Below are positions 1,777 to 27,366 of a stretch of DNA of 32,000 bases, in pieces (within the stretch, counting starts at the first letter, position 1; every line of letters begins with the position of its first letter). The stretch covers positions 240,001 to 272,000 of the forward strand of contig CP126532.1 in the NCBI GenBank assembly GCA_030167145.1, read 5' to 3'. The position numbers and the translations under genes are program-made. The notes beneath the pieces are model-generated. The model had not been told where the DNA came from. It did no database searches and saw only the letters and a program-made list of their open reading frames with translations. Source of the DNA: Ktedonobacterales bacterium. GTDB taxonomy: Bacteria; Chloroflexota; Ktedonobacteria; Ktedonobacterales; JADMIN01.

Positions 1777-1987
1777 CTTGCCCTGGCATATATTACCGCA
1801 CCATCGCCACAGCAACCGTGGTCATCCACCGGCAACAGCGCGCACTCTGGAACCGTTCACCTTGGATTACCGCCTCGGATCGGCATAAACAGAATAGACC
1901 TGCACGAAATGGACAAGTTGAATGAGAGAACCACTTGGAGGTTGCATGAGCGCAGTTCTTCTACGCCGAACCAATGAGGAAACGACA

Positions 1988-3445
1988 ATGAACTCCCGCG
2001 ACCAGCGACGCTGGCTAGCGCTGATTGTCCTTTGCCTGGGATCCCTGATGATCGTCCTCGACACCACGATTGTCAACGTCGCGCTGCCGTCCATCCAAAA
2101 GGATCTCGGATTCTCCCAGACCACGCTTGCCTGGGTCGTGAATGCCTACCTGCTGACCTTCGGCGGTTTCCTCCTGCTCGGCGGGCGGCTGGGCGACCTC
2201 TTCGGCCACCGGCGACTCTTCCTGATCGGTATCGCGCTCTTTACCCTGGCCTCGCTCTGTTGCGGCCTCTCGCGCTCAGAGCAGTTCCTTATTGGAGCAC
2301 GAGCAGTGCAGGGTCTGGGTGGCGCCGTGGTATCGGCGGTTGGGCTTTCACTGGTCATGAACTTGTTCACTGAGCCAGCAGAGCGGGCAAAGGCTATGGG
2401 CGTCTTTGGCTTCGTCGCAGCAGGGGGCGGAAGCATCGGCGTCCTTCTCGGCGGGGTCTTGACCGGCGCGCTCAATTGGCACTGGATCTTTTTCGTCAAC
2501 CTCCCGCTTGGCATTGTAGTCTGTGCCCTCTCATTGCTGCTGCTGCCAGCTACGCGCGGCTCAATTGGCGCTGGCCACCTCGATGTCGCAGGCGCCGTCA
2601 CCGTGACCCTTTCGCTGATGCTCGCTGTCTACGCGATTGTGAACGGTAATGGTGTGGGCTGGCTGTCCATCCAGACGATTAGCCTGCTTGTTGGCGCGGC
2701 GCTGCTGCTCGCGGTTTTCCTCGCCATCGAGTCCCGTGTCCGCTCACCACTTGTGCCACTTGACCTCTTCCAGTTGCGCAACGTCGCGACCGCCAACGTT
2801 GTTGGTGTCCTCTGGGCCGCTGCCATGTTCGCCTGGTTCTTCATCTCCGCCCTCTACCTGCAACTCGTGCTGGGGTACACTCCGCTCCAGGTCGGCCTAG
2901 CCTTCCTTCCAGCCAACCTCATCATGGGAGCGTTCTCGCTCGGCCTCTCCGCCAAACTCGTCATGCGTTTCGGCATCAAGCGCCCGTTGGCAGTGGGCTT
3001 ATTTCTCGCCGCAATCGGCCTTGTGCTCTTCGCGCGTGCTCCGGTCGGCGGGAACTTCGCCCTCGATGTGCTTCCCAGCATGATCCTGCTCGGATTCGGC
3101 GCGGGCATCGCCTTCAACCCCATGCTGCTTGCCGCCATGAGTGATGTTGCGCCGACCGAATCAGGTATCGCCTCTGGCGTCGTCAACACCGCGTTCATGA
3201 TGGGTGGAGCTTTGGGCCTCGCGATTCTTGCCAGCCTCGCCGCCTCGCGCACCAATAGCCTGCTGGCCTCCGGCGACACCATACGCGCCGCTCTCAATGG
3301 CGGCTATCACGCCGCCTTCATCGTCGGCGCGCTCTTCGCCGCCTCGGCTGCCACGCTCAGCGCCGCCCTCCTTCGTACAACGGGTGCGGTAGCAGGCGAT
3401 GCTGATTCCCCACCCGCCCTCGTGGGAGCCGCCAGCCGCGACTGA
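1988..3445 (+). CDS. MFS transporter, DHA2 (EmrB/QacA-like, 14-TMS) drug:H+ antiporter family
   Basis: Motifs 'LIVLCLGSLMIVLDTTIVNVALPSIQKDLGFS' and 'GGRLGDLFGHRRLFLIG' are typical DHA2 signatures, with many hydrophobic segments. GAGGA RBS lies 8 nt before ATG 1988. Confidence 0.85.
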   Translation: MNSRDQRRWLALIVLCLGSLMIVLDTTIVNVALPSIQKDLGFSQTTLAWVVNAYLLTFGGFLLLGGRLGDLFGHRRLFLIGIALFTLASLCCGLSRSEQFLIGARAVQGLGGAVVSAVGLSLVMNLFTEPAERAKAMGVFGFVAAGGGSIGVLLGGVLTGALNWHWIFFVNLPLGIVVCALSLLLLPATRGSIGAGHLDVAGAVTVTLSLMLAVYAIVNGNGVGWLSIQTISLLVGAALLLAVFLAIESRVRSPLVPLDLFQLRNVATANVVGVLWAAAMFAWFFISALYLQLVLGYTPLQVGLAFLPANLIMGAFSLGLSAKLVMRFGIKRPLAVGLFLAAIGLVLFARAPVGGNFALDVLPSMILLGFGAGIAFNPMLLAAMSDVAPTESGIASGVVNTAFMMGGALGLAILASLAASRTNSLLASGDTIRAALNGGYHAAFIVGALFAASAATLSAALLRTTGAVAGDADSPPALVGAASRD

Positions 3446-3546
3446 GACGTCAGTGCAGAGACCAGAAGTGAGGTCTATCGCGTATACTGGCAATGCGCCA
3501 TCCCTGTCTCCCTGTTCTCCACAGCCAGCAGTAGGAGCCATTGCCG

Positions 3547-4755
3547 ATGATAGACTTCACCATCCCACCAGCCCTCGACGACCTGCGTACCTGCGTCGCC
3601 AATTTCGTTCGCGAGGACATATTGCCCGCTGAAAAGCGCATGCCTGAAGGGCGCCTCGACGAACACGTGCTGGCCACCCTGCGTCAGCGTGCCCGCGACC
3701 TCGCCCTCTGGACACCGCACCTCCCGCCGGAATGGGGCGGCATCGGCGTCGGTCCCCTTGGTATGGCGCTCATCAGCCAGGAACTCGGGGTCAGCGCCAT
3801 CGCGCCGCTTGTGCTCAATTGCTCCGCCCCCGACGAAGGTAACATGCACCTGCTCGAAAAAGCCGCCACCCACGAACAGAAGCAGCGTTACCTGCGTCCG
3901 CTCGCCGCCGCCGAAGTCCGCTCGTGCTTCGCCATGACCGAACAGGCTTCGGGCGCGGACGCCGCCGGACTCAAGACACAGGCCGTGCGCGAAGGCGATG
4001 AGTGGGTGCTCACCGGCGAGAAATGGTTCATCACCGGCGCGAATGGCGCAGCGTTTGCCATCGTCGTCGCCGTCAGCAATCCCAATGTCCCGCCGCAGCA
4101 AGGCATGACGCTGTTCCTCGTAGACGCCGACACCCCCGGTTGGGAGGTCGTGCGCGAGATTCCTGTCATGGGCACGCATGGCCCCGGCGGCCACTGCGAA
4201 GTCCGTCTGAACAGCGTTCGCGTGCCCCACAGCCAGATTCTCGGCCAAGAGGGCCAGGGGTTCGCGCTCGCCCAACTTCGGCTTGGCCCCGCGCGCCTCG
4301 CCCACTGCATGCGATGGATCGGCGTCGCGCAGCGCTCACTCGACATCGCCACCGCCCGCGCCCGCACCCGCGAAACCTTTGGCGCGCCCCTCGCCGAGCG
4401 CCAGGCTGTCCAATGGATGCTCGCCGATTCCGCGATGGATCTCTACGCCTCGCGCCTGATGGTGTTGCATTCCGCCTGGCTTATCGAACACGAAAAACCC
4501 TACCGCCAGGAGGTCGCCATGGCCAAGGTCTACGTCGCCGAAGCCTTGGGTCGCATCGTAGACCGCGCGCTCCAAATCTGCGGCTCGCTTGGCTACTCTG
4601 GCGATCTGCCCATCGAGCGCTTCTATCGCGATGCCCGTGCCGCCCGCATCTACGACGGACCCTCCGAGGTGCATCGCATGGTCATCGCTCGCAATCTCCT
4701 CAAAGCCAGCGCCCTTGAGGGCGACACCAAGAGCGCGTGTGGAGGATTGGCATGA
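3547..4755 (+). CDS. acyl-CoA dehydrogenase family protein, FadE2 / ACAD10-ACAD11-like subfamily
   Basis: Full-length ACAD-like translation. C-terminal 'RFYRDARAARIYDGPSEVHRMVIARNLL' has Asp (4654-4656) where canonical ACADs have the catalytic Glu of 'YEGT'. AGGAG lies 9 nt before ATG 3547; the ORF-track start at 3541 is TTG. Confidence 0.88.
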   Translation: MIDFTIPPALDDLRTCVANFVREDILPAEKRMPEGRLDEHVLATLRQRARDLALWTPHLPPEWGGIGVGPLGMALISQELGVSAIAPLVLNCSAPDEGNMHLLEKAATHEQKQRYLRPLAAAEVRSCFAMTEQASGADAAGLKTQAVREGDEWVLTGEKWFITGANGAAFAIVVAVSNPNVPPQQGMTLFLVDADTPGWEVVREIPVMGTHGPGGHCEVRLNSVRVPHSQILGQEGQGFALAQLRLGPARLAHCMRWIGVAQRSLDIATARARTRETFGAPLAERQAVQWMLADSAMDLYASRLMVLHSAWLIEHEKPYRQEVAMAKVYVAEALGRIVDRALQICGSLGYSGDLPIERFYRDARAARIYDGPSEVHRMVIARNLLKASALEGDTKSACGGLA

Positions 4756-5810
4756 GCGGAACCCACCCCCCTTTGGTAGATCCCGAATCTCTGGGCCGCT
4801 ACCTCGCCGGGCAGCTTCCCGGACCCGATGCCAGCACGCCGCTGACAGTCGAGCGTATTCGTGGCGGCCACTCCAACGAGACCTTCTATATCACCAGCGG
4901 CGCGAACGAGTGGGTGCTGCGCCGCCCGCCACGCGGCCCGTTGCTGCCCACCGCGCACGATGTCGCCCGTGAGTACCGCGTGCTGCAAGGGTTGACGCAG
5001 ACCGCCGTGCCCGTGCCACGCCCACTACTGCTCTGCGAGGACATCAGCGTCATCGGCGCACCCTTCTACCTGATGCAACGCATACACGGCTACGTCATCC
5101 GCACCGAGCTACCTCCAGCTTTCGCGGCGGACGAATCAGCGCGGCACAGTATAGGCATCGAACTTGTTGATCGGCTGGCCGACCTCCACGCCGTAGAGTA
5201 CGCCACCGTCGGCCTGGGCGACCTGGGCAAACCGACAGGCTATCTTGAGCGCCAGTTGCGCCGCTGGACCGGCCAGCTTGACGCCTCACGCAACCGTCCC
5301 CTTCCCGACCTCGATGCCGTTACTACCTGGCTGCACGACAACCTCCCTGAATCAGGCTCCACCACCATCGTCCACGGCGACTACCGCCTCGACAACGCCA
5401 TGTACGCACCAGAGTCGCCCGCGCGCATCGTCGGCATCTTCGATTGGGAGATGGCAACCCTTGGCGATCCACTGGCGGATCTGGGCTACCTACTCTCCTT
5501 CTGGTCCGAGGCCACCGACCCACCCTCACCCCTGCTCGATGCCGCGTGGAGGCTCACCGCGCAGCCCGGCTTTCCCACCCGCGCCGAACTGGTATCGCAC
5601 TACGCCGCCCACACCGGGCGCCAGATGACGCACGTCCCATTCTACGTCGCGCTCGCCATCTGGAAGCTCGCCATACTTCTCGAAGGTAGCTACGCGCGCC
5701 ACCTCGCTGGCGCCACCGACGACCCATTCTTCGCCAGCCTGGGTGAAGGCGTGCCTGCGCTTGCCCGCCGTGCGTTCGCCGTCTGCTCTGGCGAGCTAGC
5801 ATTCACGTAA
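4752..5810 (+). CDS. APH/ChoK-fold phosphotransferase (ACAD-associated kinase)
   Basis: Catalytic loop 'HGDYRLDN' (5373-5396) and 'IFDWEMATLGDPLADL' are the Brenner and DxD-type motifs of aminoglycoside-phosphotransferase-fold kinases. GGAGGA RBS present. ATG 4752 overlaps the ACAD stop (ATGA). Confidence 0.85.
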   Translation: MSGTHPPLVDPESLGRYLAGQLPGPDASTPLTVERIRGGHSNETFYITSGANEWVLRRPPRGPLLPTAHDVAREYRVLQGLTQTAVPVPRPLLLCEDISVIGAPFYLMQRIHGYVIRTELPPAFAADESARHSIGIELVDRLADLHAVEYATVGLGDLGKPTGYLERQLRRWTGQLDASRNRPLPDLDAVTTWLHDNLPESGSTTIVHGDYRLDNAMYAPESPARIVGIFDWEMATLGDPLADLGYLLSFWSEATDPPSPLLDAAWRLTAQPGFPTRAELVSHYAAHTGRQMTHVPFYVALAIWKLAILLEGSYARHLAGATDDPFFASLGEGVPALARRAFAVCSGELAFT

Positions 5811-5826
5811 GAGAGGCCATTTCAGC

Positions 5827-6555
5827 ATGTCATCTGATACCGTTGATACACAATTGCCTACTGATGACCCATTTCTCACCCTGAAGTCTGGCGCGACCGA
5901 AATCTACCTCATCCGCCACGCCAATGCCCTTCCCGAAGCAGAAGAAGTCGTTGGCGGCGACTACGATGCCCAGGCGCTCAGCGAGCTTGGCCGCCGCCAA
6001 TCTCAGGCGCTCGGCGCACGTCTGCGCGATATTCCGCTCGCCGCCGTCTACAGCAGCCCCATCGGACGCGCCCGCCAGACCGCCGAAGCGGTCGCCACTC
6101 TCCACGATTTGGAGGTGCAGATCGAGCCAGACCTACGCGAAGTCGCGCTTGGCGTAATCGGCCCCGCTACGCACGATGGCCTCCCACCGGAAGAAGTCGC
6201 GAAAATGCTGAAAGCTCGCCTGCACGAAATCGCTACCATCGCTGTCACCACTGGCCGCTGGGAGAGCATCCCTGGCTCCGAGCCGTCCGTCTCCCTGCGC
6301 GCGCGCATGCTTGCCGCTGTCCAGCGCCTCGCTATCGCCCATCCCGGCCAGCGCATTGCCGCCGTCAGTCATGCCGGCTCCATTAATGCCTACCTCGCCG
6401 CACTGCTTCGCCTCGACCATGACTATTTCTTCCCCGCTGCCAACACCTCCGTCTCAGTCGTCCGCCTCAAAGGCGCGCGCTCAATGCTCTTCTCCCTTAA
6501 CGACATCGCCCACCTGCGCACACCTGACCTGCTCGGCTTCGACCCCAGCGCATAG
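5827..6555 (+). CDS. histidine phosphatase (phosphoglycerate-mutase-like) superfamily protein
   Basis: N-terminal 'IYLIRHANA' (RH at 5914-5919) and distal 'AVSHAGSI' match the RHG...H catalytic pattern. Starts 16 nt after the kinase stop. Confidence 0.82.
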   Translation: MSSDTVDTQLPTDDPFLTLKSGATEIYLIRHANALPEAEEVVGGDYDAQALSELGRRQSQALGARLRDIPLAAVYSSPIGRARQTAEAVATLHDLEVQIEPDLREVALGVIGPATHDGLPPEEVAKMLKARLHEIATIAVTTGRWESIPGSEPSVSLRARMLAAVQRLAIAHPGQRIAAVSHAGSINAYLAALLRLDHDYFFPAANTSVSVVRLKGARSMLFSLNDIAHLRTPDLLGFDPSA

Positions 6556-6558
6556 AAA

Positions 6559-6588
6559 GATCCCCTTCCCGCGTTGGGAAAGGGGATC
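6559..6588. terminator. GC-rich hairpin (12 bp with a 1-nt bulge, 5-nt loop) just after the phosphatase gene; possible terminator
   Basis: GATCCCCTTCCC-gcgtt-GGGAAAGGGGATC begins 4 nt after the stop. There is no clear U-tract on the + strand and a short TTTCT on the - strand. Confidence 0.4.
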
Positions 6589-6785
6589 AGGCAACGAGTA
6601 AGCCGTATCATACCCGCGTCTGGTGCGCCGTTAGCGTATCCACCTCTCATGCCACGCCAGGATTAACTGCGGCAAAATGGCTATCGCCAATCGCCACCGA
6701 CACCCACTCGCTTCCTAACCCGCGCAGGCTGGTTTTGCGGACGTAGGCCATTCAGGCGCGGTTTCAACCGCCCGCTCTCCTGCCG

Positions 6786-7628
6786 CTAGTTCCGATACCA
6801 GAAGCGATCCCATAGCTCCCAGAACGTATCGCCCCGTGCCTCCACCTTGCGCGGGTTAACGATCTCCACACCCGGCCGCCCTGCAAATGCCAGCGTGTGA
6901 TCTGGTGCCGCCAGTTCCACTGTGAACGTCATCGGCGTGGCGGGACGGTACGGTTCGGGCCAATCGCGCGTGCTCAGCGCCTCGCGCACCTTGCTCTCGA
7001 TCAGCGCACAGGCATCGCCGTGGCTCAGCGACTTCGCCGAATAGCGCCCCAGCCCCACCTTCACTGGCGCTGTCACCACCTTCGGCCCCAGCAAATCCGT
7101 CACCTCTTTGCAGGTCGCCGTATCGCCCGCCGCGAAGACAATGGGCACATTGAATGTGCCGCAGATCGCCGCTTCGATACCGCTCTCGCCGACAAGCTGG
7201 TCATTGATCCAGGCGTTATACCAGGCCTCGCTGCTCACTGTGTGGCACATCACCCCATCTGGTGTCCCCGCCATCGCGTGCGCGCCCACCAGCAGCGCCG
7301 CGTCGCAGCCCTCGCGCAACGGGTCCACATAGCGGCACCAGGCATGGCCAAGCACATAACTTGCCCCTGGCTCCAGTTTCTCAGGTATCAGACTCTTGAA
7401 GCTATAACTGCCGCCCGCGCCGTGACAATCAATTACGATGATGTCATCAGCGCCCGCAGCCTTCGCTCCGCGCACCGCCGCGTTTACCTCGCCCGTCATC
7501 AGGCGGCGACCCTCTTCATACTGCGGTTTGCCACCGTTCACCTGATCCCAGGTCTCGATGCCGGCCATGCCTTCCATATCCACCCAGATGACCACACGCA
7601 CCGTATACTTCTCCCTTGCCGTACTCAT
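6786..7628 (-). CDS. M55 family D-aminopeptidase (DppA-type)
   Basis: 'VVIWVDMEGMAGI', 'IIVIDCHGAGG' and 'GAHAMAGT' match the DppA/M55 peptidase pattern. Full length, about 280 aa. Confidence 0.82.
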   Translation of the reverse strand: MSTAREKYTVRVVIWVDMEGMAGIETWDQVNGGKPQYEEGRRLMTGEVNAAVRGAKAAGADDIIVIDCHGAGGSYSFKSLIPEKLEPGASYVLGHAWCRYVDPLREGCDAALLVGAHAMAGTPDGVMCHTVSSEAWYNAWINDQLVGESGIEAAICGTFNVPIVFAAGDTATCKEVTDLLGPKVVTAPVKVGLGRYSAKSLSHGDACALIESKVREALSTRDWPEPYRPATPMTFTVELAAPDHTLAFAGRPGVEIVNPRKVEARGDTFWELWDRFWYRN

Positions 7629-7706: not shown

Positions 7707-8183
7707 CTACGCCATGGTCAGCGCGATCACTGCCCAATACAGCGCCGACGCGCCCGCGTCCTCTGCCGCCGCATCAATCGCGACGCGCGCACTCACCAGC
7801 AGATCTTGCTCCGGCTCATCGCGCAGAGTCGCCGGGCGCTCCTCCGAGAACAACTCCTCATCATCCTCATCGTCGTCGGTGATATACCATTCGTTGCGCC
7901 CTTCCACCGACGCCCCCGCCGCCGCGAACGGCTCCAGCAGCGTCGAGGCCGCATCGAGCGCATCCGCGACCCCCAACCGCCCCGACCGGTAACGGAGCGT
8001 GATATCCTCCACACAAATGGCGCGCGGCTCTGGCCGTGCCTTCCGTTGTAGAGCGGGCAGAGTCTGCGCCAGCCACTCTCCATCCGCCACGGTCAGCCGT
8101 GGCAAGAAAATGCTGGTGCGTATCCGGCGCTCATTGGTCGCGCCCCGAAGCCAGGGTGCGCGTCCGTTTCTGCGGTGCGACAT
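7707..8183 (-). CDS. hypothetical protein with an acidic DDDEDDEE tract
   Basis: Strong GC3 bias across the frame. GAAGGTGG lies 4 nt upstream of ATG 8183; a longer GTG-initiated version reaches 8258. No family recognised. Confidence 0.5.
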   Translation of the reverse strand: MSHRRNGRAPWLRGATNERRIRTSIFLPRLTVADGEWLAQTLPALQRKARPEPRAICVEDITLRYRSGRLGVADALDAASTLLEPFAAAGASVEGRNEWYITDDDEDDEELFSEERPATLRDEPEQDLLVSARVAIDAAAEDAGASALYWAVIALTMA

Positions 8184-8511
8184 AGTGCCACCTTCGGCAT
8201 AACGCCGTTCCCGTACCGTGCGCTCCGGCGCTTTCGCGCTCACCATGCGCATATGCACGGGCCTTTGCTAGTTAGCTTGTTGCGCTCCCTCTCAACAGTG
8301 CCAAAAACATCCAGTCTCCGCCAACGCGCTACTGCTGTTCGTCACACAGATATACGTCCAGTTGTACTTCCTGTTGCGTTACCCCGCGCGCCGCTGTACA
8401 AGGCATGCTACCACGTTGAGCAGATTCCCCGCCAATTCGCGCATGTTCCCCCAAAACCGCTATCCTCATCAAGGAAAATACGCTATCATTGCCATCCGGA
8501 GGAATAATCTC

Positions 8512-9363
8512 TTGACGCCCGCAACTCCCGCGCCACACCCACCTATCACAGTTGATGTCGCTCTTGCCCCAACCGCACGAGAGCGATCGGAACGACACAC
8601 CAACGTCACCTACATCGTCGTGGACGTCATTCGCGCCACCACATCGCTCTGCATCTTCTTTGAGTACGGTTGTAATCAAGTGCTCGTTGCCCCGAGTGTT
8701 GCCGCCGCTCGCGCTGCCCGCACGCGCCTGGGACCACGCTGGGTGCTCGCGGGCGAGGTTGGAGGCGCACGGCCCGATGATTTCGACCTTGGCAATTCGC
8801 CCGCCGAAATCGCGGGCGCTGCGCTCGCTGGGCGCGACGTCCTCTTCGCCACCACCAACGGCACCCGCGCGCTCCATGCCTGCACAGGCGGGCACGCCAT
8901 ATTCGCGGGTTCCTTCCGCAATGCCGCAGCCGTCGCCACCACCGCGCTCGCCACCCTATCGGAGGAGAATGCTCGCGCCCCCATCGGCGAGCCAGAAGAC
9001 CCACAACCCGACATTGTTGTCGTCTGCGCCGGACGCGACGACAAGCCAACCTATGACGATACTCTCTGCGCAGGCTATCTCGTCCGCAAGCTCACCGAAG
9101 CTGCCCACGCAATGGGTAGAGACATCATCCTGCGCGAAAATGCCCCGCTGGCCTTCGACGCCGCTGCGGGCGCTGAGGCGCTCTGGGGCTATCGCAATGC
9201 GCTCGCCCGCTCCGAAGCCGCACGCGCCATTGCGCGCATTGGTCTCAGCGGCGACCTCGATTGGTGCGCCGCCACCAACGTCACCCAGGTCGTGCCGCAG
9301 GTGACCGGCGTTGACGCATCAGGCGAGCTATTGATAATCGAACCCACCTCAATGCTTGCATAA
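8512..9363 (+). CDS. ComB-family (2-phosphosulfolactate phosphatase-like) protein, paralogue 2
   Basis: 'YIVVDVIRATTS', 'DFDLGNSP' and 'ATTNGTRAL' are canonical ComB family motifs. TTG 8512 is in frame, 8 nt after GGAGGA (8498-8503). The ORF-track upstream extension has a non-coding look. Confidence 0.75.
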   Translation: MTPATPAPHPPITVDVALAPTARERSERHTNVTYIVVDVIRATTSLCIFFEYGCNQVLVAPSVAAARAARTRLGPRWVLAGEVGGARPDDFDLGNSPAEIAGAALAGRDVLFATTNGTRALHACTGGHAIFAGSFRNAAAVATTALATLSEENARAPIGEPEDPQPDIVVVCAGRDDKPTYDDTLCAGYLVRKLTEAAHAMGRDIILRENAPLAFDAAAGAEALWGYRNALARSEAARAIARIGLSGDLDWCAATNVTQVVPQVTGVDASGELLIIEPTSMLA

Positions 9364-23033: not shown

Positions 23034-23139
23034 ACAGGAGAAATCCGGCCACAGTACGGCGGCGCGACGGTGCCCCGCCCCAGCGGCATCGCACGCAATG
23101 ACCGCGTGCGGCAACCGTGTTGAGGAGGCAAGCACCGCA

Positions 23140-24258
23140 ATGGAACAAAACCTGCGTATTCCCGGCCCAACCCCGATTCCGCCAGAAGTCTTGCATGCGC
23201 TCAGCCGCCCGATGATCAACCATCGCGGACCAGAGTTCGCCGCCATCTTGGAGCGCGTCGAGACACAGCTACAGCACTTCTTCCAGACCACACACCCAAT
23301 CCTCTTTTTCCCCTCAGCGGGTAGCGGAGCAATGGAAGCCGCCATCGTCAATTGCTTCTCCCCCGGCGACCACGTACTCGCCGTCACTATCGGCGTATTC
23401 GGCAATCGCTTCGCAAAGATCGCCGAAACGTTCGGCCTGCGCGTCACACGCCTGGAAACTCCCTGGGGCCACGCGGCAGACCTCGATCAACTCACTGTCG
23501 CTCTCGCGGACCAACGTGATCTCCGTGGCGTGCTACTCACTCACAACGAAACCTCCACTGGCGTCACCAACGACATCGCCGCGCTTGCCCGCATCATTCG
23601 CCAACGCCAGCCTGATGCGTTGATCCTCGTAGACGCGGTTAGCTCGCTCGGATGTGTTGACCTTCAAATGGACGCATGGGATCTCGATGTCGTCTTCACT
23701 GGCTCGCAAAAAGGTTGGATGGTGCCACCAGGGCTGGCGATGGTCGCAGTTAGCCCCCGCGCCTGGGCGGCTGCGGACCGCGCAACTTTGCCACGCTTCT
23801 ACTGGGACTTCCGCATGGCAAAGAAATCGCTTGACAAGGGACAAACCCCCTACACGCCGCCGGTCAACATCTTCTTTGGGCTTGATGTCTCGCTTGAAAT
23901 GATGCGCACCGAGGGCCGCGACGCCATCTTCGCCCGCCACCAGCGCGTCGCCGACCTCACCCGCACCCGCGCCCGCGCCCTCGGCCTCGCCCTCTTCGCC
24001 GACCCCGCATATGCCTCCAATACCGTCACGGCGATCATCGTCCCAGACGGCATTGATGGCAAAGCACTGACAAAGGCTTTGCGCGAACAGGAGAGAGTAG
24101 TCATCGCGGGCGGCCAGGAGCGGTTAGAAGGCAAGCTGCTCCGTATCGGTCATCTCGGCTACGTCCACGATACTGACATCAGCGCATGTATGGACGCCCT
24201 CGAACGCCAGCTCGCCGCCCTTGGCTACCGAGCACAAGAACCCGCCTACGAGCAGTGA
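23140..24258 (+). CDS. class-V pyridoxal-phosphate aminotransferase (alanine-glyoxylate / serine-pyruvate / phosphoserine aminotransferase-like)
   Basis: 'RIPGPTPIPPEVL...MINHRGPEF', 'SGSGAMEAA' and 'FTGSQKGWMVPPGL' (PLP lysine context). GAGGAGG upstream. Confidence 0.88.
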   Translation: MEQNLRIPGPTPIPPEVLHALSRPMINHRGPEFAAILERVETQLQHFFQTTHPILFFPSAGSGAMEAAIVNCFSPGDHVLAVTIGVFGNRFAKIAETFGLRVTRLETPWGHAADLDQLTVALADQRDLRGVLLTHNETSTGVTNDIAALARIIRQRQPDALILVDAVSSLGCVDLQMDAWDLDVVFTGSQKGWMVPPGLAMVAVSPRAWAAADRATLPRFYWDFRMAKKSLDKGQTPYTPPVNIFFGLDVSLEMMRTEGRDAIFARHQRVADLTRTRARALGLALFADPAYASNTVTAIIVPDGIDGKALTKALREQERVVIAGGQERLEGKLLRIGHLGYVHDTDISACMDALERQLAALGYRAQEPAYEQ

Positions 24259-24376
24259 TGATGAGCACGGAGGAGCAGCATCCGAAATCGCCGCAGCTTC
24301 TCCCTGGTGCCGTAGCGCGCTTTAATATGTCATACTAAGATAGAGAACACTTCTACAAATGTGCAGGGAGGAACTG

Positions 24377-26059
24377 GTGGCGCAACAGCAGGACGGCGAT
24401 ATCACCAAGTTACAACAACCGCGTGTGTTGGTGGCGGACCCCATCGCGGCGGAGGGTATAGCATTCCTGCGCGGAGTGGCACATGTAGAGGAGCGGCACG
24501 GCCTGGGTCAGGCGGAACTTATCGCGAGCATCGGTAATTTTGATGCCCTGCTGGTGCGCAGCGAGACGCGCGTCACCGCCGACGTTATCAGGGCCGGAAC
24601 GCGGCTGCGTATCATCGCCCGCGCGGGCGTTGGCACCGACAACATTGACCTTGACGAGGCAACCCGGCAGGGCGTCATCGTGGTCAATTCGCCCACCGGA
24701 AACACTACCGCCGCCGCCGAGCATACCCTGGCGCTGCTTCTGGCACTGGCTCGCCACATCCCAGAGGCCAATGCTGCTCTGCGCGACGGCCGCTGGGAGC
24801 GCGCAGCCTTTGTCGGCACCGAATTGCGCGGGAAGACGCTCGGCATTGTCGGGTTGGGCAAAATCGGTGCTGAAGTCGCGCGCCGCGCTGGCGAAGGTGG
24901 TCTCGGCATGCGCTTGCTCGCCGCTGATCCCTACGCCTCGCCGGAGACCGCACGCAAGCTGCAAGTAGAACTCGTTTCACTTGACGAGATGCTTCCCCAG
25001 GCTGATTTCGTGACACTACACACCGCATTGACCAACGCCACGCGCGGGCTGCTAGGTCCGGCGGAACTGGAGCTTATGAAACCGGGCGCACGCATCCTCA
25101 ACTGTGCGCGTGGCGGAGTAATTGATGAGCCTGCCCTGCTAGAAGCCCTCAATTCTGGGCATATCGGTGGCGCTGCCCTCGATGTCTTCGCCAAAGAGCC
25201 GCCCGCTCTCAACACGCCATCTGGTGCACTCGTGGCACACGCGAAGGTGATCGCCACCCCACATCTTGGCGCCTCGACCGAGGAAGCTCAGGTAAATGTC
25301 GCGCTGGAGGTGGCCGAGCAGGTGGCTGAAGTGCTGCGTGGCGGCACCGCGCGTGCGGCGGTCAACGCGCCGCTCATTCTACCGGAAACCCTGCGCGAGC
25401 TTCAACCCTGGATGGATCTGGTGGAGAAGCTAGGGCGGCTCTATACACAACTCCATCCCGGTCCTCTACATCGCGCCGAGCTAACCGTCAGCGGTGAGAT
25501 CGCTGGACTGGACACCCGCCCGCTCAGCGCCGCGCTTGTCAAAGGGTTACTGGAATCCGTCTCCGAAGCGCAAGTAAATTTGGTGAACGCGCAAGTGTTG
25601 GCGCGCGACTGGGGCCTGGAGATCACCGAGAGCCGATCAACCGAGCCAGAGCAATATGCCAATCTGGTGACAGTACGGGTAAGCGGCGATGGCGGCGGAG
25701 TGCTGCCCTTTATGCTGGCGGCGACCATCGCCTGGGGTGAAGAGCGCATCGTACGGGTAGATCAATATGCAACCGACTTCGTACCCAAAGGCCACATCCT
25801 CATCTGCCGCAACCTCGACCGCCCCGGCATGATTGGGCGCATCGGCACCATCCTGGGCGACGCTGGCGTCAACATCGGCCACATGGATGTCGGCCCCATC
25901 GCCAGTGTCCCACCTGATACCACCGTAAACCATGGCCAGCGCACACCAGGCGGCGAAGCACTGATGATCCTCTCACTCGATAACCCCGTCCCCGACCGCG
26001 CCATTGAGCAGATTCGCAACACCCAGGACATCTTCAGCTTCACCAGTGTCACGCTGTAG
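24377..26059 (+). CDS. serA: D-3-phosphoglycerate dehydrogenase (long form with ASB + ACT domains)
   Basis: 'GVGTDNIDLDEATRQGVIVVNSP', 'GKTLGIVGLGKIGAEVARRA', 'LHTALT' and 'NCARGGVIDE', with a C-terminal ACT 'NLDRPGMIGRIGTILGDAGVNI'. GTG 24377 lies 5 nt after GGAGG. Confidence 0.9.
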   Translation: MAQQQDGDITKLQQPRVLVADPIAAEGIAFLRGVAHVEERHGLGQAELIASIGNFDALLVRSETRVTADVIRAGTRLRIIARAGVGTDNIDLDEATRQGVIVVNSPTGNTTAAAEHTLALLLALARHIPEANAALRDGRWERAAFVGTELRGKTLGIVGLGKIGAEVARRAGEGGLGMRLLAADPYASPETARKLQVELVSLDEMLPQADFVTLHTALTNATRGLLGPAELELMKPGARILNCARGGVIDEPALLEALNSGHIGGAALDVFAKEPPALNTPSGALVAHAKVIATPHLGASTEEAQVNVALEVAEQVAEVLRGGTARAAVNAPLILPETLRELQPWMDLVEKLGRLYTQLHPGPLHRAELTVSGEIAGLDTRPLSAALVKGLLESVSEAQVNLVNAQVLARDWGLEITESRSTEPEQYANLVTVRVSGDGGGVLPFMLAATIAWGEERIVRVDQYATDFVPKGHILICRNLDRPGMIGRIGTILGDAGVNIGHMDVGPIASVPPDTTVNHGQRTPGGEALMILSLDNPVPDRAIEQIRNTQDIFSFTSVTL

Positions 26060-26172: not shown

Positions 26173-27366
26173 CTACAACGTCAGCTCTGGTGGCGCAAAG
26201 ATCGCCCGCACAAGCCGGTCAGCGTCATGGCGCACCAGATGTCCCTGATGCACCGCCAGTAGCGCATCTACGATCACATCCGGCACGAGTTGGCTCACTG
26301 CCTCCACATCAGGCTCGACGGGATATTGCTGCTGCGCCTCGTAGCGTTCTACCAACTCTTCCGGGAGCGAGCCATCATGCAGAATCACCCGGTCCACTCT
26401 CCCGCCAAGGTAGGTGTGCAGTTCGCGCACAAAGTCGGACGCGCGGAAAGCGTCTGTCTCGCCATGCTTGGTCATCAGATTGCAGATGTACACCTTACGC
26501 GCTTCAGATCCGCGAATAGCCTCCGCGATGTCACGCACCAGCAAATTCGGCAGGATGCTCGTATACAGATCTCCCGGCCCAAGCACGATCACATCGGCCC
26601 GGCGGATCGCGCGCAACGCCTCGGCGCAGGCTGGCGTCTCCTCACGCAGGAAGATACGTTGGATCGGCGACAGTGACCCGGCGTCGTGCAAGCCCCGTGT
26701 ATCAATCTCTGTCTCACCGCAGATGACACCGCCGCCGGCCAGTTCGGCGCAGAGTGTCGCATGCTCCAGTGTGACAGGCAGCACCTTGCCAGCGGTATCC
26801 AGCACTTCCTGCGCATCTTCAATTGCCAGCAAGAGGTTCCCATCGTTCAGTTCTTGCAGCGCCGAGAGGATCAGATTGCCCAGACTATGCCCCGCCACAC
26901 CGGCTTCACGCCCCAACATCTGCGCCTTCGAGTCGTTCGGGTCACCAGCGATCAATGCATCGGGGCGCGTCCCCTGCCCCTGGCGAAAGCGAAAGCCGAA
27001 GATTTCGCGCCAGAGCACCCCTTTGCGCGAGAGCGCCACCAGCGCCTGCCTCAGGTCACCATACGGCAGCGTGCCGAACTCATCCATCAGCCTCCGCGAA
27101 CTGCCGCCGCTATCAGACATCGTCACAATCGCGGTGATCGCACATGGATAGCGCTTCAGGCTGGATAGTACCGCGAACGGACCTGTACCGCCGCCAATCG
27201 TCACCACTCGCTTCTCGACCATCTGCCGCAATGTCTGGCGCTCCCGCTCAGGGTCACGCCCCTCAAGTGTCCGCGCCACAATGCTTGCTCTTTCTCTTGC
27301 CCATCGCTCGCTAACCACACCGCTTCCACACTCCATCAGCATGAATGCTGCCATGATCGGGTGCAA
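26173..27366 (-). CDS. YvcK / CofD-family protein (gluconeogenesis-factor-type, UPF0052)
   Basis: 'VVTIGGGTGPFAVLSSLK' and 'ITAIVTMSDSGGSSRRLMDEFGTLPYGDLRQALVAL' are YvcK-type motifs. The start is uncertain: TTG 27366, ATG 27354 and ATG 27222 are all possible. Confidence 0.82.
   Translation of the reverse strand: MHPIMAAFMLMECGSGVVSERWARERASIVARTLEGRDPERERQTLRQMVEKRVVTIGGGTGPFAVLSSLKRYPCAITAIVTMSDSGGSSRRLMDEFGTLPYGDLRQALVALSRKGVLWREIFGFRFRQGQGTRPDALIAGDPNDSKAQMLGREAGVAGHSLGNLILSALQELNDGNLLLAIEDAQEVLDTAGKVLPVTLEHATLCAELAGGGVICGETEIDTRGLHDAGSLSPIQRIFLREETPACAEALRAIRRADVIVLGPGDLYTSILPNLLVRDIAEAIRGSEARKVYICNLMTKHGETDAFRASDFVRELHTYLGGRVDRVILHDGSLPEELVERYEAQQQYPVEPDVEAVSQLVPDVIVDALLAVHQGHLVRHDADRLVRAIFAPPELTL

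Follow-up and report, generated by a model that had tools for sequence, protein, structure and literature searches.

The window analysed here is a stretch of 32,000 nucleotides of the Ktedonobacterales contig CP126532.1 (positions 240,001 to 272,000 of assembly GCA_030167145.1; coordinates are counted from its first letter), and our subject is a group of three genes within it, encoding an acyl-CoA dehydrogenase (ACAD), an APH-fold kinase and a histidine phosphatase. The kinase-ACAD pair is an unremarkable further example of a bacterial module that is already known and widespread, and the phosphatase gene beside it is not a chance neighbour. The unit is laid out as follows.

3547..4755, + strand: ACAD, 402 aa, ATG 3547 to TGA 4755; predicted 4-phosphoacyl-CoA phosphate-eliminating enzyme of the ACAD10/ACAD11/LvaC type
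4752..5810, + strand: kinase, 352 aa, ATG 4752 to TAA 5810; ACAD10/11-N / LvaA-type small-molecule kinase of the APH fold
5811..5826, + strand: spacer of 16 nt between kinase and phosphatase, GAGAGGCCATTTCAGC, with a GAGAGG ribosome-binding-like site read from the sequence
5827..6555, + strand: histidine phosphatase, 242 aa, ATG start; branch 1, clade I, conserved third member of the module

The three genes are tightly packed on one strand, as a preliminary description of this DNA had stated, and the two junctions it described are exact in the sequence: the kinase ATG (4752-4754) and the ACAD TGA (4753-4755) overlap as ATGA within GGATTGGCATGAGCGG, and 16 nt separate the kinase from the phosphatase. 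The motifs it quoted (IYDGPSEVH, HGDYRLDN, DWE and RH...H) were all located in the translations. AGGAG is found ~10 nt 5' of the ACAD ATG at 3547; the reading frame can be extended to a TTG at 3541, which leaves the interpretation unaffected.

The ACAD protein matches the Pfam families Acyl-CoA_dh_N, Acyl-CoA_dh_M and Acyl-CoA_dh_1 with E values of 1e-12, 2e-22 and 3e-48, respectively. The ACAD10/ACAD11/LvaC group is marked by Asp in place of the catalytic Glu, by an HCMR motif and by an upstream Arg; the corresponding residues of mouse ACAD11 (R626, H634 and R637 of HCMR, and D753) are group-specific and essential, H634 and R637 lying close to FAD (Rashan et al., PMC12440821). All three markers are present in the window ACAD, which in these respects does not behave as a canonical FadE enzyme. 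IYDGPSEVH occupies residues 368-376 (nt 4648-4674), where Asp370 replaces the Glu of the canonical YEGT and Y-D370-GPSEVH aligns with ADGPDEVH of ACAD11; R245-LGPARLA-H253-CMR256 (nt 4279-4314) aligns residue by residue with the HCMR region of ACAD11, R245 standing eight residues before H253 in RLGPARLAHCMR as compared with RLGPGRIHHCMR of ACAD11. The best matches in the PDB were 4hr3 (236 bits) and ACAD11 (2wbi/8v3u, 223-230 bits).

Scores against genomic neighbours set the two kinds of ACAD apart more clearly than the PDB scores do. Compared with ACADs taken from their genomic neighbourhoods, the window protein scored 243-344 bits against kinase-adjacent members and 152-194 bits against canonical ones. 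Eight kinase-adjacent ACADs on plasmids of archaea, Actinomycetota, Deinococcota and Pseudomonadota were all of the HCMR type (one as HAMR), seven of them having the Asp motif too, while the sampled ACADs lacking an adjacent kinase had neither. By homology, the window ACAD would act by FAD-dependent phosphate elimination, converting 4-phosphoacyl-CoA to 2-enoyl-CoA with no need of an external electron acceptor.

Judged by its sequence, the kinase can be assigned to its family unambiguously: it matches Pfam APH with an E value of 1.5e-52, and its PDB matches are 9o56 (272 bits), the kinase domain of ACAD11 (8v3v, 217 bits) and 3dxp (213 bits), all others falling under 40 bits. The entry 9o56 is, in our reading, the "ACAD10 kinase" from C. 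thermarum studied by Ye et al., whose text describes that structure. The same authors found the beta3 Arg, the alphaC Glu, the catalytic Asp, an Asn and DWE to be essential, and the window kinase retains every one of these residues, with the beta3 Arg in LRRPP (aa 56-60), the alphaC Glu in AREYRV, HGDYRLDN at aa 208-215 (nt 5373-5396) and DWE at aa 231-233 (nt 5442-5450); the stabilising Lys of the H-x-D-x-K/R loop is an Arg here (HGDYR). Kinase and ACAD are almost certainly members of the LvaA/LvaC-ACAD10/11 families, and the kinase is expected to phosphorylate 4-hydroxyacyl-CoA. The earlier proposal that the operon is an unfused bacterial version of ACAD10/11 chemistry is therefore supported by signatures and by matches to solved structures, the chemistry itself being carried over by homology.

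The third protein belongs to Pfam His_Phos_1 (E value 4.8e-38), with the RH nucleophile motif at residues 30-31, a second Arg (R81), the proton-donor Glu (E105) and, in VSHAG, the second His (H182). Nearly all of 77 aligned relatives of the same clade (clade I, see below), partnered or alone, retain these five residues, and a few are substituted at R81 or E105. An AlphaFold2 model (pLDDT 82.6) gave RosC, PspA, PhoE and a riboflavin-pathway phosphatase as best fold matches, RosC being the closest both in structure and in sequence (70 bits; Foldseek E value 2.6e-15, ~31% identity); PDB entry 8s6q was recognised as RosC through a plasmid tblastn search followed by Foldseek. The closest characterised relatives (RosC, PspA, PhoE, GpgP and CobC) are all hydrolases, and the protein is predicted to be a catalytically intact small-molecule phosphomonoesterase. 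No NCBIfam cut-off was reached by PspA (77 bits against 350), CobC (79 against 163), archaeal dPGM (68 against 225) or GpmB (62 against 261). The preliminary description had offered as an alternative a phosphoserine phosphatase serving the serA gene 17 kb away; we rejected this identity, given the PspA score far under its cut-off and the lack of conserved linkage to serA.

The relationship of the phosphatase to its neighbours was explored with a profile built from 24 homologues and run against a single genome for each GTDB species; fragments were removed, leaving 77 species-level loci (numbered with the prefix L), and partners were scored by tblastn, blastp and hidden Markov models. A kinase and/or an HCMR-type ACAD adjoins the phosphatase in 55 of these 77 loci, in the following gene orders.

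ACAD-kinase-phosphatase: 2 loci (L008, L010); further instances are the window and L221
ACAD-phosphatase-kinase: 6 loci, Eremiobacterota
phosphatase-kinase-ACAD: 8 loci, Dormibacterota and one Eisenbacteria
kinase-phosphatase: 30 loci, Ktedonobacterales and other Chloroflexota
phosphatase-kinase: 1 locus
ACAD-phosphatase: 8 loci, Ktedonobacteraceae, one of them ending at a contig end
phosphatase alone: 22 loci

Overlaps of 4 nt between neighbouring genes of the module are frequent in these loci. The same-strand ACADs (25/25) carry R...HC(M/L)R together with DG(P/A)xEVH and lie no more than ~1.2 kb from the phosphatase, while the only two other ACADs found are canonical (YEGT), on the opposite strand and 2.5-4.5 kb off. 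Three kinase subtypes occur, and for all of them the best solved relatives are 9o56, 3dxp and ACAD11. When all neighbouring open reading frames were clustered all against all, kinase (43 loci) and ACAD (25 loci) far outnumbered all other conserved neighbours and were the sole clusters common to several phyla. A neighbour-joining tree of the phosphatases showed one clade per phylum, with the solitary cases scattered inside partnered clades, a distribution that suggests repeated loss or relocation of the partners. The co-occurrence by which the earlier proposal was to be judged extends, counting also a second clade, far beyond this genome, and the phosphatase is very probably tied to the kinase and ACAD in function. 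Its genomic partner can be the kinase, the ACAD or both, and the most straightforward reading would make the phospho-intermediate that those two enzymes share, or a close analogue, its substrate.

Outside Ktedonobacterales, the closest homologues of the window ACAD are 67-72% identical to it, many of them labelled as metagenome-assembled genomes of Actinomycetota. Ten contigs carrying such homologues were looked up. Six have the order ACAD-APH-HAD with tight spacing, in at least three synteny contexts; two (L220 and L222) have ACAD and kinase and no phosphatase; one (L226) ends within the locus; and one (L221) is a Ktedonobacterales trio in the arrangement DXS-ACAD-kinase-phosphatase. With the window kinase, the kinases of the ACAD-APH-HAD operons share 54-63% identity, and the HAD genes of these operons are located as follows.

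L217, 7327-7995: HAD gene
L218, 7301-7954: HAD gene
L219, 7261-7887: HAD gene
L223, about 6290-6938: HAD gene
L224, 5740-6411: HAD gene
L225, 5791-6486: HAD gene

HAD motif I in these operons reads D(Y/F)GGVLT, the second Asp of DxD being replaced by Gly; the best NCBIfam model is TIGR02247, "epoxide hydrolase N-terminal domain-like phosphatase" (91-109 bits, under its cut-off of 125), and the best full-length PDB match is the lipid-phosphatase domain of EPHX2. The HAD domain of ACAD10 likewise retains only the first Asp of DxD (Paquay et al.), and its predicted structure is most like the EPHX2 phosphatase domain (Ye et al.). We thus base the likeness between the bacterial and the ACAD10 HAD on the TIGR02247 assignment, the match to EPHX2, DxG and these published statements; because DxG and EPHX2 likeness match the reported ACAD10 features, we regard the actinobacterial operons as unfused ACAD10-like triads.

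The third gene of the window is His_Phos_1 and not a HAD of this EPHX2-N-like, DxG type. As judged from these sequences, the histidine phosphatase displaces the HAD in the same slot, a case of non-orthologous displacement. The proposal of a non-homologous phosphatase in the slot of the ACAD10 HAD is thus directly supported, given that the nearest ACAD-kinase pairs outside Ktedonobacterales carry an EPHX2-N/ACAD10-type HAD as their third gene. The window kinase (72-77% identity) and phosphatase (57-71%) are typical of Ktedonobacterales kinase-phosphatase pairs, whereas the ACAD is nearer to actinobacterial ACADs than to that of the L008 trio (53%). On these identities the window operon looks like a mosaic, and the contrast suggests that ACADs joined a resident kinase-phosphatase pair more than once.

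A different HAD hydrolase, with the canonical DxD, was seen ~1.7 kb 3' of the kinase-phosphatase pair in one Ktedonobacterales subclade (L003, 8480-9190; also L017, L018, L021-L023 and L030). It belongs to another subfamily than the ACAD10 type and is therefore probably a matter of synteny only.

The module was also sampled from the kinase or the ACAD side. In the eight annotated plasmid kinase contexts an HCMR-type ACAD lay beside or near the kinase in 8/8 and a short-chain dehydrogenase/reductase (SDR) gene was present in 6/8. A degenerate DNA pattern for GPGRIHHCMR recovered 120 metagenomic ACAD loci, of which seven (L120, L131, L138, L196, L197, L206 and L208) have His_Phos_1 directly beside the ACAD or kinase, while in L192 it lies 1.3 kb off; phosphatase-ACAD-kinase is among their gene orders. 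Fifty-six of the metagenomic loci have at least 800 nt on both sides, and a same-strand kinase adjoins the ACAD in 15 of them. The Deinococcus and metagenomic phosphatases form a second His_Phos_1 clade, only ~26-30% identical to the window protein. Besides those of the L120-L208 set, it includes the following two.

L090, 5565-6269: clade-II phosphatase
L094, 5037-5735: clade-II phosphatase

Clade II has Ser at the position of the second catalytic His (FTSGG/VSSGG as against VSHAG) and keeps RHG, Arg and Glu; with these residues its activity may be weakened or changed. More distant plasmid homologues (Sulfitobacter, Rhodococcus and Nonomuraea) do not lie beside a kinase/ACAD pair and were treated as outside the clade, although some are found among acyl-CoA genes or near another phosphotransferase. 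One of these regions, L087 5025-8096 on a plasmid of Rhodococcus sp. USK13, encodes an SDR, a histidine phosphatase, an NAD-dependent epimerase and a 448-aa phosphotransferase-family protein, so that linkage to an APH-like kinase is found once more for a remote homologue of the phosphatase, there with no ACAD. A word-index search with the Dormibacterota-type phosphatase gave relatives that were nearly all from Dormibacterota and Eremiobacterota, Pseudomonas and Actinobacteria not being reached.

Gene structure, family signatures, conserved linkage and displacement are direct observations, and the reading that we favour, with a probability of roughly 55%, is that the three-gene operon is an unfused bacterial counterpart of the animal ACAD10 triad to which the phosphatase belongs as third part. 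The LvaA/ACAD10-11-type kinase would phosphorylate a hydroxylated acyl-CoA, by homology 4-hydroxyacyl-CoA to 4-phosphoacyl-CoA, and the LvaC/ACAD10-11-type FAD enzyme would eliminate the phosphate to yield a 2-enoyl-CoA for beta-oxidation. The phosphatase most likely hydrolyses the kinase product or mis-phosphorylated or unprocessable analogues of it; in this way the phospho-intermediate pool would be restricted or edited and CoA trapping prevented. The direction of this effect, like every substrate, is inferred. For the more specific statement that the enzyme acts on the product of the kinase as a safety valve or proof-reader we would give somewhat less than even odds; mutation of the HAD in ACAD10 raises 4-phosphoacyl-CoA about twofold (Paquay et al.), a result that fits a safety valve.

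Several observations count against this reading, and a first group of them concerns the linkage. Twenty-two of the 77 clade-I loci (~29%) have neither kinase nor ACAD within 8 kb, and the nearest relatives of the window locus, L005-L007, are partnerless and share with it only the downstream synteny (M55, ComB-like, MurF); the phosphatase can therefore persist with no adjacent partners. Most Ktedonobacterales loci are kinase-phosphatase pairs with no ACAD nearby. Seen from the other genes, a histidine-phosphatase-family gene follows the kinase in 2/8 plasmid contexts, both of Deinococcus, and a phosphatase adjoins the ACAD in 4/56 (~7%) of the metagenomic loci with readable flanks. A search of 1.84 billion representative proteins with the phosphatase profile gave 0/150 best matches fused to APH or ACAD. 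The phosphatase is a recurrent accessory in a minority of modules and not a universal part; from the "conserved need" for a phosphatase put forward in the preliminary description, recurrence in several lineages stands, and universality gives way to a lineage- or subfamily-specific pattern.

The solitary loci would also fit a reading in which the protein is an unrelated housekeeping enzyme (e.g. a phosphoserine or broad sugar-phosphate phosphatase) of a syntenic block beside which a kinase-ACAD cassette had been inserted. In the subclade of the window the phosphatase is indeed fixed relative to M55, ComB-like and MurF genes while the upstream genes vary (DXS, kinase, or ACAD plus kinase), the ACAD looks horizontally acquired by the identities given above, and serA lies with a class-V aminotransferase gene 17 kb away. 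We nevertheless think this explanation improbable: the association recurs in several gene orders, in at least four phyla and in two His_Phos_1 clades, close same-strand ACADs are only of the HCMR type, a HAD phosphatase takes the same slot in sister operons, and the PspA, CobC and dPGM models score far under their cut-offs. Still less credit goes to a dPGM-like phosphomutase that would move the phosphate, e.g. from the 3- or 5-phospho to the 4-phospho acyl-CoA, and widen the range of ACAD substrates. True mutases exist in the superfamily, and the protein is linked to both a producer and a consumer of the phospho-intermediate; nonetheless, the hydrolytic nature of its closest characterised relatives, the low dPGM scores and the substitution by a HAD phosphatase speak for hydrolysis, and no dihydroxy or bisphospho substrate is evident.

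A second group of points against the ACAD10-like reading concerns its chemistry. All substrates are transferred by homology, and hydrolysis of what the kinase has just made would amount to a futile ATP cycle. In the PDB comparison ACAD11 (230 bits) exceeds a canonical Thermus ACAD (MCAD, 1ukw; 226 bits) by a marginal gap, so that the scores barely separate the two and the family assignment of the ACAD rests on signature and context. Among the annotated window open reading frames and conserved neighbours there is no SDR or AMP-binding gene; the same survey agrees with the earlier remark that no CoA ligase or hydratase is encoded. Moreover, Ye et al. assign the ACAD10 kinase and HAD to ether-lipid substrates.

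Following the latter authors, the kinase could act on monoalkyl- or monoacyl-glycerol and the phosphatase on lyso- or short-chain phosphatidate, the ACAD being separate or accessory. Ye et al. report chimyl alcohol as a substrate of several prokaryotic relatives of the ACAD10 kinase, and 1-O-alkyl-2-acetyl-glycero-3-phosphate and lyso-species as substrates dephosphorylated by the HAD. The best PDB match of the window kinase, 9o56, is presumably their C. thermarum enzyme, the pair of kinase and phosphatase with no ACAD is the commonest Ktedonobacterales arrangement, and the operon has no CoA ligase, SDR or hydratase nearby. This explanation strikes us as doubtful all the same, because the ties of the phosphatase extend to the ACAD, with eight kinase-less ACAD-phosphatase pairs and ACAD partners strictly of the HCMR type, and because the nearest characterised phosphatase relatives (RosC, PspA and PhoE) act on soluble small molecules. 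We know of no ether lipids in these phyla, which we also count against it. In addition, bacterial LvaA and LvaC and their Burkholderia orthologues perform the 4-hydroxyacyl-CoA route (PMC12440821; Paquay et al.).

The last objection comes from ACAD10 itself, whose HAD showed negligible phosphatase activity on 4-phosphohexanoyl-CoA and was concluded to restrain the kinase (Paquay et al.). By analogy with this restraining HAD and with LvaB, the histidine phosphatase might serve the kinase chiefly through binding or regulation and tune its output, hydrolysis being secondary or absent. Such a role would agree with the position of the phosphatase in P. citronellolis, which is that of lvaB in P. putida in a cluster with no lvaB, with its place beside the kinase wherever both are present and the frequent 4-nt overlap, suggestive of matched expression, with the missing second Asp of ACAD10-type HADs, and with the Ser of clade II, which hints at weaker catalysis. 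We consider it unlikely, though, as five catalytic residues are kept in nearly all 77 clade-I proteins, even the kinase-less ones, which is unexpected for a pure scaffold; eight loci pair the phosphatase with an ACAD and no kinase; and two unrelated folds (HAD and His_Phos_1) in one slot fit a shared chemistry better than a shared surface.

The reports on ACAD10 bear on the statement in the preliminary description that the role of the HAD domain is unclear: two papers now give it roles, and yet these conflict, the domain being disputed between allosteric restraint of the kinase and ether-lipid metabolism. The bacterial operons offer an argument here, since recruitment of an unrelated, fully equipped phosphatase fold to the same slot in several phyla argues that selection keeps phosphate-ester hydrolysis itself. 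The proteins, separately encoded and soluble, offer a way to identify the substrate, be it 4-phosphoacyl-CoA, a mis-phosphorylated analogue or a lipid phosphate. A wider and more speculative step, which we put forward only tentatively, is that the hydroxyacyl-CoA kinase/ACAD pathway has phosphatase activity as an intrinsic third function, one that was invented anew again and again, supplied by the ACAD10-type HAD in animals and Actinomycetota, by clade I in Chloroflexota, Eremiobacterota and Dormibacterota, and by clade II in Deinococcus and others. If true, control or editing of the phospho-intermediate would be a general design rule of the pathway, and the fully equipped bacterial histidine phosphatases would reveal the true substrate of the disputed ACAD10 HAD. 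The pathway is also extended to poorly studied soil phyla (Ktedonobacteria, Eremiobacterota and Dormibacterota), for which 4-hydroxy acids or gamma-lactones may be carbon sources.

A histidine phosphatase as third member of the module has been noticed once before, in one Pseudomonas strain, where it is known from the gene cluster. The literature searched gave no description of a phosphatase conserved over four or more phyla in several arrangements, of a second His_Phos_1 clade or the displacement of an ACAD10-type HAD in orthologous operons, or of unfused ACAD10-like triads in Actinomycetota.

The surroundings of the unit include the following features.

6559..6588, no strand assigned: perfect 12-bp hairpin, from a terminator scan, between the convergent phosphatase and M55 peptidase genes
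1922..3445, + strand: DHA2-family MFS transporter directly 5' of the ACAD (Pfam MFS_1, TIGR00711 EmrB)
988-1815, - strand; 8362-9363, + strand; 26173-27363, - strand: three open reading frames, the ComB-family pair and CofD

The hairpin, lying 3' of the phosphatase stop and before the convergent M55 gene, fits an end of the operon there and is probably a two-way terminator. The transporter is doubtful as a part of the unit and is not a conserved neighbour in related loci. A sigma-70 promoter scan of 3300-6900, a type of scan that is uninformative for Chloroflexota, found none. The ComB-family genes are two paralogues of the 2-phosphosulfolactate-phosphatase family, and CofD is a 2-phospho-L-lactate transferase (F420 pathway); many Ktedonobacterales share the synteny of the phosphatase with MurF and with the ComB-like gene on the downstream side. 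Downstream of the M55 peptidase gene, a ~180-aa open reading frame with no family match (7707-8258, - strand) keeps its position in 24 related loci. At 23098-26056 (+ strand) a class-V aminotransferase gene precedes one for a full-length, ACT-domain D-3-phosphoglycerate dehydrogenase (serine pathway), and no phosphoserine phosphatase gene was seen beside the pair. GC skew is negative throughout the window (1-32000; cumulative -2.13) and G+C content is 60-65%; at the resolution of the window scan the ACAD gene shows no compositional break, despite its actinobacterial-like affinity. Finally, the long matches of the fusion search were tandem phosphatases or tRNA-synthetase chimeras; two of the proteins, P0264 (1161 aa) and P0314 (1056 aa), are class-I aminoacyl-tRNA-synthetases that contain between two and four inserted or fused stretches of His_Phos_1, which could be an odd architecture or an artefact of assembly or gene calling.

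Compared with known systems, the unit shares with lvaABCDE of P. putida the adjoining, separate genes for an APH-type kinase and an HCMR/Asp-type ACAD, and the predicted route from 4-hydroxyacyl-CoA through 4-phosphoacyl-CoA to 2-enoyl-CoA. It differs in the absence of lvaB, for which no open reading frame fits between the window genes, and of lvaD (SDR), lvaE (CoA ligase) and lvaR, in the added histidine phosphatase, in having the ACAD first and in its Chloroflexota host; classical lva clusters, unlike the window operon, carry CoA ligase, SDR or hydratase genes. P. citronellolis LA18T has the arrangement lvaA-histidine phosphatase-lvaC-lvaD with no lvaB in a levulinate-induced cluster (PMC6692424), thus differing from the window in its kinase-phosphatase-ACAD order, its SDR and its levulinate-induced context. 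Its authors suggested in 2019 that the histidine phosphatase may act on 4-phosphovaleryl-CoA (PMC6692424); the accession of this protein is WP_074983800. Within the literature searched this is the sole published histidine phosphatase inside a kinase/ACAD cluster, and no other paper there links LvaA to a bacterial phosphatase.

RosC, the 8-demethyl-8-aminoriboflavin-5'-phosphate phosphatase of Streptomyces (8s6q/9emu), has in common with the window phosphatase an N-terminal extension before RH; it acts on a flavin in roseoflavin biosynthesis with no kinase/ACAD context, so the likeness is at family level only. ACAD11 (8v3u/8v3v, 2wbi) is the closest solved relative having both domains, with the scores given above, although it is fused and has no phosphatase part, whereas the window genes are separate. 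The ACAD-APH-HAD operons of Actinomycetota (L217-L219 and L223-L225) agree with the window in gene order, tight spacing and the identity of their ACADs and kinases, and differ in their third gene, the EPHX2-N/ACAD10-type HAD with D(Y/F)GGVLT. Mammalian ACAD10, in turn, is a HAD-kinase-ACAD fusion with a DxG HAD, while the window has three genes and a His_Phos_1 fold with a complete catalytic set; both combine a phosphatase fold, an APH kinase and an HCMR/Asp-type ACAD, and the window kinase and ACAD share the diagnostic residues.

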